IMG/VR virus record: IMGVR_UViG_2802429245_000005
Origin: a virus
Taxonomy: Duplodnaviria > Heunggongvirae > Uroviricota > Caudoviricetes
Strand: one strand, 5' to 3'
Length of the DNA: 41,556 bases
Position 1 is the first letter of the stretch, and the number at the start of each line of letters is the position of its first letter. The translations under genes and the position numbers were made by a program. The notes below the pieces were generated by a model. It was not told the DNA's origin, did no database searches, and saw only the letters and a list, made by a program, of their open reading frames with translations. Below are positions 1 through 41,556 of the stretch, piece after piece.

Positions 1-516
1 ATGAAATTTAAAAAATGTTTTCTGCCTGTGGCAATTTTAGCGTCATTCACCCTGGCAGGATGCCAGTCAAATGCTGACGACCATGCCGCCGATGTCTATC
101 AAACCGATCAACTGAATACAAAGCAAGAAACTAAAACCGTTAATATTATCTCCATTCTTCCCGCAAAAGTTGCCGTAGATAACTCACAAAATAAACGGAA
201 TGCGCAAGCCTTTGGCGCACTTATTGGCGCTGTCGCAGGCGGCGTTATCGGCCATAACGTTGGATCTGGTAGTAACTCCGGAACAACGGCTGGTGCAGTT
301 GGTGGCGGAGCTGTAGGCGCGGCAGCGGGTACTATGGTGAATGATAAAACCTTAGTGGAAGGTGTCTCTTTAACTTATAAGGAAGGCACCAAAGTGTACA
401 CCTCCACCCAGGTGGGTAAAGAATGCCAGTTCACAACGGGTTTAGCCGTTGTTATTACCACCACTTATAACGAAACGCGTATTCAGCCAAATACAAAATG
501 TCCTGAAAAGAGCTAA
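1..516 (+). CDS. Outer-membrane lipoprotein with glycine-zipper region; probable host flank
   Basis: ATG at nt 1. N-terminus MKFKKCFLPVAILASFTLAGC has a lipobox (LAGC). Gly/Ala-rich GAVAGGVIGHNVG zipper. TAA stop at 514-516. Confidence 0.6.
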   Translation: MKFKKCFLPVAILASFTLAGCQSNADDHAADVYQTDQLNTKQETKTVNIISILPAKVAVDNSQNKRNAQAFGALIGAVAGGVIGHNVGSGSNSGTTAGAVGGGAVGAAAGTMVNDKTLVEGVSLTYKEGTKVYTSTQVGKECQFTTGLAVVITTTYNETRIQPNTKCPEKS

Positions 517-531
517 CTATCAGGAGGACTC

Positions 532-1074
532 ATGAAGAAAGTTTTTCTTTGCGCCGCCATATTAGCTGCTGTTAGTAGCCCGGCTTTCGCCTCTTCATTA
601 CAGGATCAACTCTCTGCGGTCGCAGAAGCTGAACAGCAAGGCAAAAATGAAGAACAAAGGCAGCATGACGAATGGGTTGCGGAGCGCAACAGGGAAATCC
701 AGCAAGAGAAGCAACGGCGCGCAAACGCTCAGGCCGCAGCGAATAAAAGAGCGGCAGCAGCAGCAGCGGATAAAAAAGCTCGCCAGGATAAACGGGACGC
801 CGAATTCACTGCGGATAAAAAGCGCGATCAAAGTTATGAAGATGAGCTGCGCAACTTAGAGATTCAGAAGCAAAAACTGGCGCTGGCAAAAGAAGAAGCG
901 CGCGTTAAGCGTGAGAACGAATTTATCGATCAGGAACTGAAACACAAAGCAGCGCAAACCGATGTTGTACAATCTGAAGCTGACGCTAACAGGAATATGA
1001 CTGAAGGTGGTCGTGATTTGATGAAAAGCGTGGGTAAAGCAGAAGAGAATAAATCAGACAGTTGGTTTAATTAA
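532..1074 (+). CDS. Secreted charged coiled-coil protein (signal peptide); probable host flank
   Basis: RBS AGGAGG at 523-528, ATG at 532. Signal-peptide-like N-terminus MKKVFLCAAILAAVSSPAFA. Lys/Glu/Arg/Ala-rich body. Confidence 0.55.
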   Translation: MKKVFLCAAILAAVSSPAFASSLQDQLSAVAEAEQQGKNEEQRQHDEWVAERNREIQQEKQRRANAQAAANKRAAAAAADKKARQDKRDAEFTADKKRDQSYEDELRNLEIQKQKLALAKEEARVKRENEFIDQELKHKAAQTDVVQSEADANRNMTEGGRDLMKSVGKAEENKSDSWFN

Positions 1075-1326
1075 TCGTCTTTCCACTACCAGGCCTGTAA
1101 TTCGTGAGGATTATGGGCTTTTTAATTGCATAAAAAAACCTCCAGTGGATGAACAGAGGGTTTTGTTACCAAAATATGCTGAAGCCTCGTACGAATAGAA
1201 AACCTCAGCATTTAGTGTTCGGGTTTATTCCCACTAAATTATTTACGACACACATAACCATTTGACTGATAACAACTTTCTGAAACCTGATTTTCACCGT
1301 ACCGTTTTATATACCGTCACCGGAAA

Positions 1327-1824
1327 TCAGTGCCACGATTTTTGCTTCTTCAGTGAATCGTATTGCTGTTCGCAGGATTCTCCTGCAATCCGATACTTTT
1401 CAGCCTCAGCTGCTGTTGCGTTGTAAACTCGGTTGCTTTCTTCAAGCATGTCGGCGAGCACACCGATGACCTTGCTGGCTGGCGTGCCAGTGGGGAAAGA
1501 TCCGGTATAGTGTTCGGCGAGTCGCTTGGTTTTGTCAAGCTCGGCGCGCAGGCTGTCAGCAGCGGCATTAGCATGCTCAGCATCAACACGCGCCACATCG
1601 ATACGGGATTGTGCTTCACGTTCAATTTGTGTTTTCTCCTGATCACGTTGTGACCTGGCCTTATCATCAGCCTGTTTCTGATCTTCCTGTGCCTGCGCAT
1701 ACCCGGCGTCGTACTGACGAATGCCGTGTGCATTCCAGGCTACAACTCCTGATATGACCAGAACAGCAAGCATCGCCATGATAACCAACTGTTTCCAGTA
1801 TGCTTTTGCGAATGCCCAGATCAT
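1327..1824 (-). CDS. Rz-like i-spanin (lysis)
   Basis: N-terminal TM helix then charged coiled-coil body. Start overlaps endolysin stop (ATGA at 1821-1824). Last gene of the lysis cassette. Confidence 0.6.
1350..1598 (-). CDS. Rz1-like o-spanin lipoprotein embedded in Rz in another frame
   Basis: Internal start gives [17 protein letters not shown] (lipobox LTAC) followed by a Pro/Ser-rich segment, entirely inside the Rz ORF. Start codon choice (1598, 1583 or nearby) is uncertain. Confidence 0.4.
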   Translation of the reverse strand: MWRVLMLSMLMPLLTACAPSLTKPSDSPNTIPDLSPLARQPARSSVCSPTCLKKATEFTTQQQLRLKSIGLQENPANSNTIH

Positions 1825-2450
1825 AACGCCAGCACCTTACTGGCAGTGATGTATCGCGCGCGCCGGTCATCAATGCCGTTCCGGCCACCATTGATAAGCA
1901 GAGTTACACGTGCAATATCTCCGGTATACTTCATGCAGCCTTTGCTGGAGAAGAACCACGCCGCGCTACGAGCCGCGTATTCGTCCTGCGCAAGCAGTTC
2001 AGGACTCTCCAGCAGGTCAACCTTAAGACCGTTTCCACAGTCACGATAGTTATTCAAACCGGTAATCTGGATAAGTCCGCGCCCACGGTAGTTCCAGCCA
2101 TCGCCAGGAGCATTGTTACCCATGCGTTTGCTGTACACCAGATTGGCAATCGCTCTCTGGCGCTCAGGTGGCAATGGTGGTTCGCCTGCGCGTCGCCCCA
2201 ATGCGTTGGCCTGTCCCTGAGTGAGACGCCCAGCCCGAACAAAGTTAGCCAGTCCGCTGACGCTGTAGTTGAAATTTTCCTGCAACCGGGTGAAACCTCC
2301 AGACTCATGCCCGACCTGAGCAATAAACATTGCCTGATCTTCTGGTTTGCTGATACCAAACTCTTTCATCGCAGAAGTTATATGCGAGAACCAGCGTGCG
2401 GCCAGCGCCTCGCTAATACCAGCAGCTCGCTGGAATTGTTTAATCTCCAT
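1821..2450 (-). CDS. Endolysin, glycoside hydrolase family 19 (chitinase-like) lysozyme
   Basis: Internal ATG at 2448-2450 gives [12 protein letters not shown]... with [18 protein letters not shown] and NY motifs typical of GH19 phage endolysins. The longer ORF to 2615 has an atypical N-terminal extension. Confidence 0.75.
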
Positions 2451-2643
2451 GTTTAGACCTCGATACTTTAAAAATTTGAACGACGTTACCGCGCGTTTTA
2501 ATAACCGCAGCGAGCATGACAGCGTTGATAATGACCTCAGATAAATCCACAGCCATTGGCGTGCGGAACCAGATTGCATAGGCAACACGAACCGGAATAC
2601 TGGCCGCAGCAACAATCAGGAAATAAGCAAGCCACCCCCCCAT
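2440..2643 (-). CDS. Small two-TM membrane protein, candidate class II holin or antiholin
   Basis: 67 aa with two hydrophobic helices and a charged C-terminus (KVSRSKHGD). Overlaps the endolysin start by 11 nt. RBS is weak. Confidence 0.4.
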
Positions 2644-2733
2644 CTTCGATGTTGAGATCCGTTACGCCGGAATGTGACAACACGAATTGCTATGCCAGTA
2701 CAAATAACTGCATTGGTGATAAGCAAAAAAAAC

Positions 2734-3138
2734 TCATGCGTTACCATCGTCTTTTCTCCCCGGAATTAACTCGCGTGGATTATCGGAACGGTGGTAGAGC
2801 CATATACCAATACGCACAGCAACAATTGCTGACACGAATGCGCCAGCAGAGAAAACAATCCCTTTTTCAAAAGAGTCCTGCGTGATAGTAGGGATCAGGC
2901 TGGCTATGCCGATAAGAATTGATGCTGCTGGTTTATAAAAAAGAAGGCCGCAGAGAAAGCTAAGCATCGACAAGAGTACACGACGACGAATGGGATACTC
3001 TACCGCAGAGGTAACAAAAATTACCGCTCCAGCCAAAGCCCCCAAAGCAACCTCAGGAGGAACTCCTGCTATCACCGCCGCCAGAGAACTCATGCTAAGC
3101 CACTGATTTAAAGTTTCACTGGTTAGTTGAGCTGACAT
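2734..3138 (-). CDS. Multi-TM membrane protein, putative holin
   Basis: ATG at 3136-3138 preceded by GGTGG. About 134 aa with 3-4 predicted hydrophobic helices, immediately upstream of the endolysin. Confidence 0.5.
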   Translation of the reverse strand: MSAQLTSETLNQWLSMSSLAAVIAGVPPEVALGALAGAVIFVTSAVEYPIRRRVLLSMLSFLCGLLFYKPAASILIGIASLIPTITQDSFEKGIVFSAGAFVSAIVAVRIGIWLYHRSDNPRELIPGRKDDGNA

Positions 3139-3358
3139 GTTTTCCACCGTTTATATGCATAACTACCTCCTGAACAGTAAAGCATTATGCATGATAAACC
3201 ATTTATGGTTTTTTGTTACTTCAACATCGTCAATCCCCTGTTTTCATGCCGATAATAAGGCTCACCTTTTACATAACACTGAAGAAACAACAGTACAGAA
3301 ATGATTCAAACTATGGAGATCGGGTTGAATACCGCGCCATCAAATGGCGCGGTAGCGA

Positions 3359-3655
3359 TCAAATAGAGAAATAAATACAAAAACAAAAAATGACAGGAAC
3401 AGCAAAATCCAACAGACTTCCCACATCCCACACGCGTGGGTCAAAACCTCCCCACCATGGCATGTTGATACGTTTCCCTTTCCCAAACTTTTCTATCCAG
3501 CGATATTCTGCCTGGGTGTGTTCACGCGCAATGAAGAACGTACAACCGGCTATCGCACCGTAAGCCCAGTTTCCTGTTATTATTCCGAAGAAACATTGCA
3601 CAATTATTGATGCAATAGCATGGACAAAAGGAGAATAGTCAATATTATTCATCAT
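3359..3655 (-). CDS. Small integral membrane protein of unknown function
   Basis: ATG ATG at 3650-3655 preceded by GAAGGTG. About 98 aa, hydrophobic (IASIIVQCFFGIITG..., FAVPVIFCFCIYFSI). Followed by a 10-bp perfect-stem hairpin at 3331-3354. Confidence 0.45.
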   Translation of the reverse strand: MMNNIDYSPFVHAIASIIVQCFFGIITGNWAYGAIAGCTFFIAREHTQAEYRWIEKFGKGKRINMPWWGGFDPRVWDVGSLLDFAVPVIFCFCIYFSI

Positions 3656-3684: not shown

Positions 3685-6426
3685 TTACACAGCACAAATC
3701 CTGATCGTTGCTGTGATATCAGTTTCAGTGCCATTATTGAGATATAACCTACCGCCTACAATTGACATCCCAATTTTGGTAGAAACTTCTTCATCTGCAG
3801 ATGTCACCACCACGTTTGTTTTATTGTAATTACCAAGCGGAGATTCATCAGTCGAATGCCCTGGCCTCAATATCATTCCTACACCTGCAAAGAAATTAGG
3901 GTTCCCATTATTTATAACATCCACACAATAAGATAATGCGCTTTTACTAAGTGGGATGGATTGACTTGTATGTGCCTTAACCCACATTTCCCATACGTAT
4001 TCACTTTTACGTATCGCCCCCTCACATGAACCAGATGCATGGAATAACTTTCCTGATGATACAGTGTTATTGGTGCCAACAAGAATCATCTGATTTCCAC
4101 CACCAAAGCCAAAGTTATCACCAAGAGATGGTCCACCATTAATCCTTAACATATATGCATCAGTACTGCCTGATGAGGCGTCAGAGTTATCTATATATAC
4201 AGTGCAATCACTTATAAGAACGCCATCAATCTTATCTGGCGCAACAGTATTAGTTTGGACAACGACGAACTCTCTGGTGGTAGATTTTGCCGAACAACCT
4301 TTAATAATTGTTGGTGTTTCAAGAGTATATGTTTGAGTAATAAAAATGAAATTACTAGGACGAAGCTTCCGATTAACAGCATTTGTTGCTTTCCACCATT
4401 TATTGCTTGATTCGGTTGTTTCGCTAAAGCCATCAATATAGTGAGTATCGGTAATAGTAATTCCGCTACCATAATACAAACGAATCGGAAGGTTGCTAAA
4501 TCCTCTAATCTCGCAACCAGATACTATCTCATTAAAACCACGTATAGTTGCGCCATAAAAACAGTCAACTGCCACATTGTCTTTATATTTAGACTCTGCG
4601 GCACCACCATGACTACCAAACCCATAGGAAAATTCAGTCCATCCTTCCGATGGAAATATAATCCCACCAGTATAACCAGTTCCGCCACCACGCATTGTAA
4701 TGTTGGTTACATTATTGTAGAGAGAACTCCAGTTACTCCCTCCAATATCAACACCACGCCTACAACAAGATGCATTGATATTGTCCACAGTGCAGTAACT
4801 GCTATTGGAAACAGAAACAGCATTACCTGTACCACCATCACCATTGAAAACTCTATTGATTCCATACAGAGATGTATCACGAACAGTGCATCTTAAGCAG
4901 CCTAACAAGGTAATCCCAGCATTCGGGAAATTTTCCACACTAGCGAAACTGGCAATACCGTTTACGCAATATTCGAAGACAACCCCATCATAAGCTTTTT
5001 GTCCGCTAGTTGCATTGGTAACTAACCCGTGTATCGTCCCAACATGAAAATCTCCAGAAATATTAAATGTAGCAGGATAGACAGCCCAGGCCTCAGCTTG
5101 CCTAACCAAACGAAATGTATCTCCTGCAGCAGGTTTATTTGGGAATCCAGTGTCAGCATTACTACCAATAGTAAATGTTTTTGTGTCATCATCATATGCT
5201 GTAACCATTTTGGTTATACCAGCATTATCTCCCGTTAATCCAAGAATTTTATAGAGTGCATCACGAGGTGGTGATGTCACTGAGAAATTTGTAGATGTAA
5301 ATGATTGCCCACTAGATGCGCCAGTAACTGTAACTGTAATATTCCCTCCTGAACGGTAGTAATAATATGCATCCTGATCTAATGTCACATTATTTCCACT
5401 AAGTGAAACGACTTCAACAATTTGCCCTTCCTGCCAACTTCCTCGGTTATCTCCACGAACAAGGTGGTTATTACGAATAACAAGCAAATCTCCGACAGAA
5501 ATATCAGACACATCATCAAGAGTCACAGTCTTTTCGCCCAATGATATATCTCTCGTTATGAAATTATGCAATTTAGTACTTGCAATTCCACCAAGCTTTA
5601 TTGCTGAACCTTCATATCCTACAACATTATTTGTGCAGAGCAATTCAACCTTTCCTGATGCCACCCAATCGAAGCAACCATATGGAATGGAAATATCTAT
5701 TTGTGAAAACAGGTACTTTCCTGCTGTCCATTCCAAACGCTTTCCGTTAGATGCGCAGTAAATGATGGCATTTGTTATTGCGTCTGTATCGTCAGTAATG
5801 CCATCCCCTTTTGCACCAAAATCGCGAACATTGACGATATCCCGCATCTTATCCTGGAACGTTCTGTATACTGCTCCAGAACCATACTGAATAAACAAAC
5901 CAAAACCACCAACAACTCCGGCGATTGCAGCATCGACATAATTACGCATTGAGCGATTATTTACAGCATCCTGCTCAAGTGATGGATCTGCAAGGTTAGA
6001 AATTCTGTTTTGTTTTGCATCGTAATATTTTGCAAGCAGAGAGGGCTTCATCAATGCACGTCTGAACCACCCAAAACATTGCTGGATCAGCATCGTCAGA
6101 TAGTCAAAGGCATCCTCATGCACTTCGGGGAAAAATTTTCCCTGATTGCGAAGGTCTGTCTCCTGCACTACATCAAGCACACGATCTATCGTAATTCGCC
6201 ATCCAGCAGCAAGCGGAGACGGAAGAACCACAGAACCGCCACTATAAGTGCCCGCCCCAGTTACCGTATAACCGGTATCCAGAACCAATTCTGTTACGTT
6301 CCCGTTCAGGTCAGACACCTGAACAACCAGGTCTGATTTTCTGAAAATTCGAAAAGTATACGGAAACGATGTCGTAACGCCGTTACCTGTGTATTCGTTG
6401 TGGTCAACTTCGGTTGAGACCGTCAT
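3685..6426 (-). CDS. Tailspike with N-terminal virion-attachment domain and pectate-lyase-like beta-helix receptor-binding/depolymerase domain
   Basis: 913 aa. RBS GGAG 9 nt upstream of ATG (6424-6426). VRDFGAKGDGITDDTDAI motif typical of right-handed beta-helix glycanases. Downstream two-thirds is AT-rich by eye. Confidence 0.85.
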   Translation of the reverse strand: MTVSTEVDHNEYTGNGVTTSFPYTFRIFRKSDLVVQVSDLNGNVTELVLDTGYTVTGAGTYSGGSVVLPSPLAAGWRITIDRVLDVVQETDLRNQGKFFPEVHEDAFDYLTMLIQQCFGWFRRALMKPSLLAKYYDAKQNRISNLADPSLEQDAVNNRSMRNYVDAAIAGVVGGFGLFIQYGSGAVYRTFQDKMRDIVNVRDFGAKGDGITDDTDAITNAIIYCASNGKRLEWTAGKYLFSQIDISIPYGCFDWVASGKVELLCTNNVVGYEGSAIKLGGIASTKLHNFITRDISLGEKTVTLDDVSDISVGDLLVIRNNHLVRGDNRGSWQEGQIVEVVSLSGNNVTLDQDAYYYYRSGGNITVTVTGASSGQSFTSTNFSVTSPPRDALYKILGLTGDNAGITKMVTAYDDDTKTFTIGSNADTGFPNKPAAGDTFRLVRQAEAWAVYPATFNISGDFHVGTIHGLVTNATSGQKAYDGVVFEYCVNGIASFASVENFPNAGITLLGCLRCTVRDTSLYGINRVFNGDGGTGNAVSVSNSSYCTVDNINASCCRRGVDIGGSNWSSLYNNVTNITMRGGGTGYTGGIIFPSEGWTEFSYGFGSHGGAAESKYKDNVAVDCFYGATIRGFNEIVSGCEIRGFSNLPIRLYYGSGITITDTHYIDGFSETTESSNKWWKATNAVNRKLRPSNFIFITQTYTLETPTIIKGCSAKSTTREFVVVQTNTVAPDKIDGVLISDCTVYIDNSDASSGSTDAYMLRINGGPSLGDNFGFGGGNQMILVGTNNTVSSGKLFHASGSCEGAIRKSEYVWEMWVKAHTSQSIPLSKSALSYCVDVINNGNPNFFAGVGMILRPGHSTDESPLGNYNKTNVVVTSADEEVSTKIGMSIVGGRLYLNNGTETDITATIRICAV

Positions 6427-33045: not shown

Positions 33046-33390
33046 TCAGAACTCTTCGATGTTCCAGCCATCACCCGCTTTCTTTGTCTTAACCGTTACC
33101 CCGATGATGCGAAACGGGTACTGGTCTGCTGCGACTTTGGTTTTCACCCTGGCGTCGTCGGTCCAGAAACCTTTCACTTCGTGTAGTTCCATCTCGCCGG
33201 TGGCGAGCATCACAGCAAAATCGGGCGTATAGAACGTGTTGTCAGCTAACCGCAGCTTGATACCCTCGAATCGATACCAGGCGATTTCCCCTGCACGTTT
33301 ACGCAGCTCAAGGTGCTGGCAATACGCAGATTCTGTTTTGTTCATCTGGCCTGTTTTGAGTCGACCAAGAGCCTGTATCTGTTTTCTCAT
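33046..33390 (-). CDS. Small PD-(D/E)xK-type nuclease (VRR-NUC-like)
   Basis: Motifs YTPDF ... ELHEVKG (PD...ExK). 114 aa. Two operator motifs upstream at 33394-33408 and 33456-33470. Confidence 0.55.
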   Translation of the reverse strand: MRKQIQALGRLKTGQMNKTESAYCQHLELRKRAGEIAWYRFEGIKLRLADNTFYTPDFAVMLATGEMELHEVKGFWTDDARVKTKVAADQYPFRIIGVTVKTKKAGDGWNIEEF

Positions 33391-33393
33391 GAT

Positions 33394-33408
33394 TTACCCC
33401 TGAGGTAA
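33394..33408. promoter_or_regulatory. Palindromic operator-like site TTACCCCTGAGGTAA
   Basis: Exact motif directly upstream of the start of gene 33046-33390. Confidence 0.55.
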
Positions 33409-33455
33409 TTAAAAACCACATAAGACACGAAATCAATAGAGTTTAGAATATTTTG

Positions 33456-33470
33456 TTACCAAACAGGTAA
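33456..33470. promoter_or_regulatory. Palindromic operator-like site TTACCAAACAGGTAA
   Basis: Exact motif between the P-like gene end and gene 33046-33390; 62 bp from the previous site. Confidence 0.55.
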
Positions 33471-33507
33471 TTATCAAGACGTAAAAAAATGCGCTATCGC
33501 GCTGGTA

Positions 33508-34284
33508 TTACTTGATAAATCCTGCCGCCTTTCCCCGCCTGTATTCCTCCATCAGCCACTGCGCCGGTGTTATTCCCCCAAGGGTGGCGGCGTTAGGCAT
33601 GCACCCGAAACTTCGCCCTGGTGGATGGTAAACGTCTCTCCCTGTGTCCGGAGGTGTACTCATGGGCTCTGGCTTTGCCTGTATGCTGATCACCGGATCG
33701 GGTATCTGCTGTCCGGAAGCCACCTTTTTCGCCCAATCATCGAGCAGCCTGCGCGCGTGTTTCTCAACCTCAATCTCGCTAAGCTGGCGCTGATACATTG
33801 CACGGCGGGTATCACATACGACCCAGTACATAACCGGATGCCGCCACGGGAATCTTTCGGGACCACCAGGATATAAACTTTTTTCCTTGCTGTACCGGTG
33901 AAACTCCGCCATCACATCGTCAATGGTGACGCCAAGAACCATCTTGCTGTCTTTACACCACTTGATAAATTGCCCTGGCGACGGCCAGAACGGAGATTCA
34001 CTGGCGCGGGCGTGGCGCATACCAGCGTTAACCTGTTCCATTGTAGTGATCCCATTCTCCAGAAACGCAAGCATCCATTGCTTACGGAATTCATTAAGTT
34101 TGTTCTGCTCCCTTATGGTCGAAACGCTTGCAGGAAATGCAGCCTGTAACTGGACAAATAGTTCATTGAAAATTCTAGCGACCTGCTCCTTTTTGCCATT
34201 GCTGTCACGCCGCTCTTCATGCACAGCAACACCATGCTCACGTAAGCGATCGTACTCATTGAGAAGTTCTGGAGTTGATTTCAT
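33508..34284 (-). CDS. P: Replication protein P-like helicase loader
   Basis: Strong resemblance to lambda P over IFNELFVQLQAAFPAS...RKQWMLAFLENGITTMEQVNAGMRHARASESPFWPSPGQFIKWCKD. RBS AAGGGG before ATG. Confidence 0.8.
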   Translation of the reverse strand: MKSTPELLNEYDRLREHGVAVHEERRDSNGKKEQVARIFNELFVQLQAAFPASVSTIREQNKLNEFRKQWMLAFLENGITTMEQVNAGMRHARASESPFWPSPGQFIKWCKDSKMVLGVTIDDVMAEFHRYSKEKSLYPGGPERFPWRHPVMYWVVCDTRRAMYQRQLSEIEVEKHARRLLDDWAKKVASGQQIPDPVISIQAKPEPMSTPPDTGRDVYHPPGRSFGCMPNAATLGGITPAQWLMEEYRRGKAAGFIK

Positions 34285-40305: not shown

Positions 40306-41556
40306 TTATTCTCCCGCCATCCACTTCTCAAACTTCGACGGGGAGAACGGAATCAAATCCGTATGCTCCCCGTTAATCCAGGAATCAATCATATCGGCCC
40401 ACTGCTGCAACATGTAGGCGCGCTGTCTGGCGTATTCCGCTTTGTTATATACGGCGCGCACACTTTTCTGCTCATGTGCCAGGGCCTTTTCAATCCAGTC
40501 TGAAGGATAACCAGCCTCATGCAACAACGTACTGGCTGTACGGCGCATATCGTGTACGGTGAAGTCCTGAATATGCTCACCATCTTCATTTATTATTTTC
40601 ACCGTTCTGTCGATCAGAGAGTTCAGCGCGGCATTAGATAATGGCTTCCGGAAGTTGTAACGACCAGGAACCAGATATTCACTTCCACCAGCGCACATCT
40701 GCAACCCGACCAATATATCCTGTGCCTGTTTAGGCAGGTAAATAACGTGCGCCCGGCTTCCCTTCATGCGGTCTGAAGGAATTGTCCATGTCCATTTTTT
40801 AAAATCTATTTCATCCCACGTTGCATTGGTGAATTCGCCTTTACGAACCATGGTGATAAGCACCAGCTTTAAAGCCATTTTCATAGTGCCCATAGCACCA
40901 ATGGCATCCAGCGTGCGGAAGAACAGGCCAACTTCTTCTGGTGTCAGTGTTCGCTCTCGTGGTTTAAATATGGCGATAGACGAAGGTTTAATGTCAGCCG
41001 CAGGATTAAACAAACCATGACCACGGTCATTGGCGTGACGGTATACGCTGCTGATGATCTCCCTGGCCTGCACTGCTGTTGCCCGGCCACCGCGTTCGAC
41101 AATCCGGTCACACAAATCACGAACCATCGATGTGGTAATTTCAGCCATCATTTTGTTGCCAAGAACCGGAAGTATGTCACGGTCGATCACTGCCTTCTTC
41201 ATTGCGCGGGTACTTTCAGCAAGGATGACGTGTTTCATATAACTGTCGGTATGTACCGTAAACGTCTCGGCACCACGAATCTTTTTGATACCGTCACGTT
41301 TAGCCGCAGCCGGTGACTGGCCTGCTTTAAGCAGCTTTTTTGCAGCAATCAGTTCTTCCCGCGCTTCTGCCAGGCTGATACCGTCACGCCCATACTGCCC
41401 GATTACCAGTGTTTCGCGGCGACCGTTGATACGGTAGTCATAGCGAAATGAGACCGTACCTGACGTAAGCACAGCTACATACAGCCCGTCACGATCGGAG
41501 ACTTTGTACAGTTTGTCCTGCGGCTTGAGGTTTTTTAATTTTGTATCGGTAAGCAC
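40306..41556 (-). CDS. int: Tyrosine integrase (P4-like family); 5' end at or beyond the window edge
   Basis: N-terminus (M)LTDTKLKNLKPQDKLYKVSDRDGLYVAV matches the P4-type integrase N-terminal domain. C-terminal catalytic region with HDMRRT and Y. ORF runs to the last base; the first codon in the window is GTG. Confidence 0.85.
   Translation of the reverse strand: MLTDTKLKNLKPQDKLYKVSDRDGLYVAVLTSGTVSFRYDYRINGRRETLVIGQYGRDGISLAEAREELIAAKKLLKAGQSPAAAKRDGIKKIRGAETFTVHTDSYMKHVILAESTRAMKKAVIDRDILPVLGNKMMAEITTSMVRDLCDRIVERGGRATAVQAREIISSVYRHANDRGHGLFNPAADIKPSSIAIFKPRERTLTPEEVGLFFRTLDAIGAMGTMKMALKLVLITMVRKGEFTNATWDEIDFKKWTWTIPSDRMKGSRAHVIYLPKQAQDILVGLQMCAGGSEYLVPGRYNFRKPLSNAALNSLIDRTVKIINEDGEHIQDFTVHDMRRTASTLLHEAGYPSDWIEKALAHEQKSVRAVYNKAEYARQRAYMLQQWADMIDSWINGEHTDLIPFSPSKFEKWMAGE

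Follow-up and report, generated by a model that had tools for sequence, protein, structure and literature searches.

Predicted integrase-distal attachment junction of a phiV10/epsilon15-like prophage at the 3' end of guaA in a non-coli Escherichia

P4-like phages and islands that target tRNA genes integrate at the 3' terminus of the gene, for which they bring a substitute along. Among phages of E. coli, vB_EcoP_ZX5 has an attP identical to attB, attgagtgggaatgatt, which is located at the 3' end of guaA, with 190 bp between it and the start of int, and its guaA junctions were confirmed in E. coli by PCR and sequencing (PMC9782041). The same core was stated for phiV10 and epsilon15 (PMC9782041), and TL-2011b is likewise reported to insert in guaA (PMC3293862). 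The junction analyzed here is in this respect an ordinary one, a described phage group at a described and already known attachment site; integrase-dependent recombination at this site is experimental for vB_EcoP_ZX5, whereas it is predicted in the present case.

The DNA under study is a window of 41,556 nucleotides, in which an initial annotation had proposed positions 1075-1326 as the left junction of a prophage. We are highly confident that this stretch is the integrase-distal junction of a Uetakevirus (phiV10/epsilon15-like) prophage of about 40.5 kb, which its tyrosine integrase of the P4 type inserted at the guaA 3' end in a non-coli Escherichia, and nothing contradictory to this assignment was found. 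The annotation is partly supported: its location was right, and the details given in its favor come down to host terminators, wrongly assigned, and a single repeat due to chance. The gene boundaries were also given correctly. On the left, the plus-strand genes yfgH (1-516), encoding an outer-membrane glycine-zipper lipoprotein (Pfam glycine zipper 2TM, in agreement with the yfgH annotation in E. coli), and yfgI (532-1074; DUF5384, Pfam E-value 4.8e-60) are the final host genes ahead of the junction, with yfgI ending at 1074. On the right, the minus-strand ORF 1327-1824 encodes an Rz-like i-spanin (DUF2514, Pfam E-value 8.8e-23; annotated as Rz-like spanin in phiV10) and is the last gene of the lysis cassette. 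Beyond Rz lie the genes for an endolysin and a tailspike and a pair of genes of the holin type, each with 87-95% identity to phiV10-like (Uetakevirus) phages of E. coli; for the lysis cassette, the identity is 87-95% to phiV10 and its E. coli relatives and ∼79-80% to phages Tyrion and PAT1. Both Uetakevirus gene content and an adjacent P4-type tyrosine integrase (40306-41556, minus strand; Pfam Phage_integrase and Arm-DNA-bind_3) are thus present.

The junction was located by comparison with seven prophage-free loci or assemblies of the same host, found via an identical YfgI protein, in which a look-up in public assemblies places guaA next. These empty sites match the window from yfgI through position 1239 and then continue with guaA, the shared sequence ending in ...GTTCGGGTTTATTCCCACTCAAT and being followed by AGTAGCTGG..., the guaA 3' end; they differ from the window in single-base lengths of two A/T runs and at position 1236. 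While the identity with the host stops at 1239, the identity with free phages already starts at 1227. The overlap of 13 bp (1227-1239) marks the attachment core, of which the window carries the attL copy ATTCCCACTAAAT in place of the consensus ATTCCCACTCAAT. Its reverse complement on the guaA strand, ATT GAG TGG GAA T, comprises the four final codons of the gene (Ile-Glu-Trp-Glu, I-E-W-E) and stop base 1. As anticipated in the initial annotation, the core is therefore found inside 1075-1326, and the uninterrupted host locus confirms the junction, with host DNA extending through 1239. The prophage boundary is accordingly fixed at 1227-1239 and not at the hairpins, which matters mainly for annotation.

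As the window stops short of attR, the right junction was read from two assemblies with the same prophage (L004 and L005), which were found via the exact integrase protein. The right end of the window shows 0 mismatches to L004 over 5251 nt and 1 mismatch to L005. In both assemblies, the phage arm is followed by ATTCCCACTCAAT and then by guaA, the attR core being located 194 nt past the window end (41556). Thus, the matching right junction does lie outside the window, and the direct repeat suspected beyond the integrase gene is found there, fused to guaA. The core is directly repeated at both ends of the prophage, with 12 of 13 positions identical between attR and the attL copy of the window and 13 of 13 in the sister lysogen L024, and the core-to-core length of the prophage is 40,524 bp. 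In five free phages (phiV10, EC.W1-9, Phi05_2388B, Tyrion and PAT1), the integrase arm, the core and the Rz arm are contiguous in an int-Rz spacer of ∼280-320 bp containing ...GCTGTTAATCATTCCCACTCAATTATTTACG.... The phage copy of the core together with its next two bases restores the guaA frame with a change of the stop codon from TAA to TGA, and the GuaA C-terminus PPATIEWE* is identical in the lysogen and the empty site. Read side by side, attL, attR, attB and attP fit a simple conservative site-specific insertion.

The locus shares with the Uetakevirus guaA site of phiV10, epsilon15 and vB_EcoP_ZX5 the same core and the same target, i.e., the last guaA codons, the same int-attP-Rz order, and the same P4-type integrase with an arm-binding domain; the distance from the start of int to the core is 194 nt here compared with the reported 190 bp. 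With regard to the published core attgagtgggaatgatt (reverse complement AATCATTCCCACTCAAT), attL of the window has 12 of the 13 host-shared bases, while attR and the related attPs are complete. Two differences were observed: this copy carries one substitution, at 1236, and attP and attB are identical over 13 bp here but over 17 bp in E. coli. Since the guaA stop codon of the host is TAA, not TGA, and the following bases differ as well, only 13 of the 17 published core bases are common to phage and host, and as the AATC part is phage-specific in this host, it is missing from the attL copy. At least four distinct lysogens at the guaA site were found in this host (L010, L013, L015, and L024/window). 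The occurrence of several independent lysogens despite a 13/17 core implies that the identity needed by the integrase, and hence the crossover, must lie within ATTCCCACTCAAT. Similar to other elements that insert into 3' ends, the phage brings a duplicated gene end, here together with a terminator hairpin closely resembling the E. coli yfgI/guaA terminator, and the target gene therefore stays intact. In contrast to those elements, the target is a protein-coding housekeeping gene and not a tRNA gene.

The phage arm of attL, i.e., the integrase-distal, Rz-proximal arm of attP, was assigned to 1240-1326 based on other lysogens and on six aligned attP regions, which come from phages of three host genera (E. 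coli, Enterobacter and Salmonella). Phage-arm sequence had been suspected in the gap between yfgI and Rz; this holds for 1240-1326 only, and the conserved elements within it had been overlooked. They form three blocks (1240-1247, 1252-1275 and 1299-1320) with variable stretches in between. The last block contains, on the plus strand, GTACCGT (1299-1305) and ATACCGTCAC (1311-1320), 12 bp apart, and the whole block, ATACCGTTTTATATACCGTCAC, is invariant in the six attPs except for its first base, 1299, which is A in PAT1. The window holds four copies of ATACCGTCAC compared with 0.04 expected, and the integrase-side arm has the motif as well, once inverted (-165) and twice as a tandem pair with the same 12-bp spacing (-137 and -125). 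Given this conservation and enrichment, GTACCGT and ATACCGTCAC are good candidates for tandem arm-type integrase sites, an assignment that fits the arm-binding domain of the integrase. Three further exact copies of ATACCGTCAC occur in the 5' part of the integrase gene, at 41035-41044 (minus strand), 41288-41297 and 41378-41387 (both plus strand). Tyrion and PAT1, with integrase DNA that is only 82-84% identical, retain both copies of the plus strand, and the intragenic copies could be extra integrase binding sites or merely conserved R-D-G-I codons.

In attP, putative 10-bp inverted core-type sites flank the sequence CCCACTC (1230-1236). Across three attP versions, the halves of this inverted repeat, GTTAATCATT[CCCACTC]AATTATTTAC, agree at 8-9 of 10 positions, which suggests a 7-bp overlap region at 1230-1236. 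In the excision reaction that we envisage, the integrase would bind the two tandem arm-type sites (1299-1320), the conserved block 1252-1275 would probably bind accessory bending or excision proteins, the sites of the attL arm would assemble with the integrase-side arm into an excision complex, and strand exchange would take place inside the overlap CCCACTC. The att sites of phage lambda combine core-type sites around a 7-bp overlap with arm-type Int sites and sites for accessory proteins. The present arrangement resembles this architecture in its inverted core-type repeat around a 7-bp center and in its arm motifs, which are repeated in either arm and form one tandem pair per side. It differs from lambda in having an integrase of the P4 type and in targeting a gene at its 3' end, the target of lambda being intergenic. 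Moreover, no close IHF consensus is present, a search of the arm giving only matches with one mismatch. Since attL of lambda is the int-proximal junction, the int-distal junction described here corresponds to lambda's attR.

Three hairpins lie to the left of the core. The first, at 1091-1125 on the plus strand, was detected by a terminator scan and consists of a 13-bp stem (1091-1120) followed by TTTTT. With a folding energy of -15.5 kcal/mol (z -3.1), it combines a stable G+C-containing hairpin with a U-run, as is typical of intrinsic terminators; it belongs to host DNA, is also present at the empty sites, and is likely the yfgI terminator. The second is the A-run/T-run hairpin (1131-1168, with arms 1131-1140 and 1159-1168), which is host DNA present at the empty sites as well and aligns to AAAAACCCTCTGTAGTAACAGAGGGTTTT of E. 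coli K-12, a perfect 12-bp bidirectional terminator between yfgI and guaA. The inverted repeat had been noted at ∼1134-1164; the repeat exists, but its fold has only -7.1 kcal/mol (z -0.21), a stability reached by 66 of 200 shuffles, and the DNA is not that of the phage. From this alignment, the hairpin is a decayed homologue of the K-12 yfgI/guaA bidirectional terminator, the job of which appears to be done in this host by the hairpins at 1091-1120 and 1176-1211.

The third hairpin, on the minus strand (1168-1211), has a 13-bp stem including G-U pairs (1176-1188/1199-1211) followed by AUUUUGGU (1175-1168) and folds with -17 kcal/mol (z -3.9). A simple terminator scan gave no flag, since its loop of 10 nt exceeds 8 nt, and its U-tract, AUUUUGG, is modest. 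At the empty sites, it is located 16 nt downstream of the guaA stop codon, which makes it likely that 1176-1211 is the native guaA terminator of the host, left orphaned by the insertion and now downstream of the prophage Rz gene. The inverted repeat reported at 1176-1211 is thus a real hairpin, but it is host DNA at empty sites and not phage sequence. As the A-run/T-run hairpin, the repeat at 1176-1211 and the 13-mer at 1161-1173 are all found in DNA that is identical in uninfected strains, none of them can be the phage arm. A weak alignment to phiV10 had raised the possibility of an older phage-arm remnant in the spacer left of the core, which was dropped, as the empty sites carry the same sequence. 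Rfam and tRNA scans of 1000-1400 and 900-1500 yielded nothing beyond a meaningless lncRNA match (E-value 0.7).

On the integrase side, the phage arm contains a strong hairpin with a U-run behind it, AACCCUCUGUUUUUGCAGGGGGUUUUUGUUUUU, and the equivalent element of phiV10 is annotated as a terminator in its record. When the hairpins were compared (3920-3952 in phiV10, L003; 3850-3885 in L005; 4905-4937 in K-12, L001), the stem of the integrase-side hairpin, AAAAACCCTCTGTAAAAACAGAGGGTT, was found to be nearly identical to the K-12 yfgI/guaA bidirectional terminator, suggesting that the phage once captured the guaA 3' end and its terminator from an E. coli-like host. Upon insertion at the guaA 3' end by the phage integrase, the phage copy of the core rebuilds the gene end, and the phage-borne hairpin with its U-run would become the new guaA terminator, so that guaA would remain properly terminated. 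The likely host guaA terminator (1176-1211, minus strand) would stay at attL behind Rz, where it would stop transcription of the lysis genes before it runs antisense into yfgI. With one minus-strand terminator presumably located on the same side of the core in either partner site, recombination would swap the terminators between guaA and the lysis operon. We infer these terminator roles, like the arm-type sites and the 7-bp overlap, from sequence and conservation. The swap would be a tidy example of phage insertion in an essential-pathway gene without harm to its expression.

The one anomaly of the core concerns position 1236, where ATTCCCACTAAAT has A and the consensus has C. C is found at this position in the empty sites, in attR, in the five free phages and in the other lysogens examined. 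The C version was also found in at least 120 IMG/VR contigs, while the sole match to the A version was an unrelated coding sequence and thus due to chance. Over 3.3 kb, only two differences separate the window from its sister lysogen L024, namely 1236 and the length of a C-run at 2634-2640 (within 2440-2747, minus strand), which has 7 C in the window and 8 in L024. The shorter run frameshifts a 102-aa Phage_holin_3_7 gene after about residue 38, resulting in the ORFs 2616-2747 and 2440-2643, and is due either to a sequencing error in the homopolymer or to a mutation, be it inactivating or phase-variable. Likewise, the two differences are either both assembly errors or signs of a prophage copy that has begun to decay. 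The A at 1236 perfects an 8-bp inverted repeat between 1210-1217 (ATTTAGTG) and 1232-1239 (CACTAAAT), which is compatible with a template-switch "quasipalindrome" mutation; coincidence is possible too.

A mismatch between attL and attR at 1236 is not expected of a freshly formed junction. Overlap heterology lowers excision in lambda, and if 1236 is the last base of the overlap, the mismatch would be predicted by analogy to depress excision here. It is conceivable, albeit rather improbable, that the change is real and falls on the last overlap base, so that the overlaps of attL and attR are mismatched and the prophage is largely locked in place, which together with the holin frameshift would represent first steps of domestication. 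Considerably less probable is that A was a phage-borne variant of attP, retained in attL as the crossover lay to its left and thereby marking the crossover point. An attL with A and an attR with C is indeed the pattern expected from an attP with A, an attB with C and a crossover left of 1236. However, L024, with one other difference (the homopolymer length) over 3.3 kb, has C, as do all five free phages, all other lysogens examined and at least 120 IMG/VR contigs, the only A match in IMG/VR being unrelated, and we regard such a variant as very unlikely.

Even less credit can be given to the proposal, following the initial annotation, that the hairpins and the string TTTTGTTACCAAA constitute a phage-derived arm with a repressor half-operator at the junction. 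The string does recur exactly as reported, at 1161-1173 and at 33451-33463, the latter beside operator-like palindromes, but the match is limited to 13 nt, and when random 252-bp pieces are drawn from the window, 38% have one or more 13-mers in common with the remainder. When the choice among ∼240 possible 13-mers is allowed for, the match is at chance level and was treated as chance. The operator-like sites near 33400-33470 are palindromes of the form TTACC-N5-GGTAATTA, whereas the copy at the junction has a single TTACC half and lies within host DNA present in non-lysogens. Furthermore, 1075-1226 with all three features is present in non-lysogens of the same host, and phage homology begins only at 1227. 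The proposal is hardly tenable and already refuted by the comparison with empty sites. In total, the gap shares four 13-mers with the rest of the window, an excess over a Markov null; this number, reached by 4% of random pieces, falls within the empirical range, and the matches are A/T-run strings without extension. The palindromes themselves, at 33394-33411 and 33456-33473, are 62 bp apart and intergenic, between the ORFs 33046-33390 and 33508-34284, described as divergent minus-strand ORFs, and they probably serve the immunity region as sites for repressor binding.

The weakest alternative, in which genes 1-1074 are cargo of the phage and the real junction is located to the left of the window, has in its favor that the TL-2011b phage record contains yfgH and yfgI homologues beside Rz, but that record is prophage-derived and also holds yfgG and a pdeF fragment, its core is the same and in the same place, yfgH-yfgI occur in 5419 of 5426 E. 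coli genomes, ∼90% of them without the arm beside yfgI, and adjoin guaA in K-12 and at the seven empty sites of the host, and the free phages join the integrase arm straight to the core, so that we attach practically no probability to it and regard it on these comparisons as already refuted.

The host status of genes 1-1074, as originally proposed, therefore withstood the cargo test, and from their distribution yfgH and yfgI are host genes and not phage genes. In E. coli K-12, they immediately precede guaA, which is transcribed convergently. The E. coli figures refer to complete genomes, and a related prophage arm is found beside yfgI in ∼510 of these 5426. The nucleotide identity of the host region or yfgI is ∼90-91% to E. 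coli, E. ruysiae, E. whittamii and Escherichia sp. E1V33, and 78% to E. albertii. In a scan of species-representative genomes with the YfgI protein, no species exceeded 96% protein or 91% nucleotide identity, and a 30-mer of the host spacer gave 0 matches in the species-representative genome collection. Judged by these identities, the host is a non-coli Escherichia; E. marmotae and E. fergusonii are possible candidates.

In the assembly index, 1175 blocks list the exact YfgI protein, yet the region is absent from species-representative genomes. An assembly labeled "Brevibacterium sp." has a 336-bp contig with a YfgI fragment of 100% protein identity, probably due to contamination. In the RefSeq record of phage TL-2011b (L018, NC_019445.1), positions 1-3520 are ∼3.5 kb of host chromosome beyond the attachment core. 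This host-derived part consists of the pdeF fragment, yfgG, yfgH and yfgI, with yfgH labeled as "DNA methyltransferase", and its presence in a phage record could mislead analyses of cargo genes.
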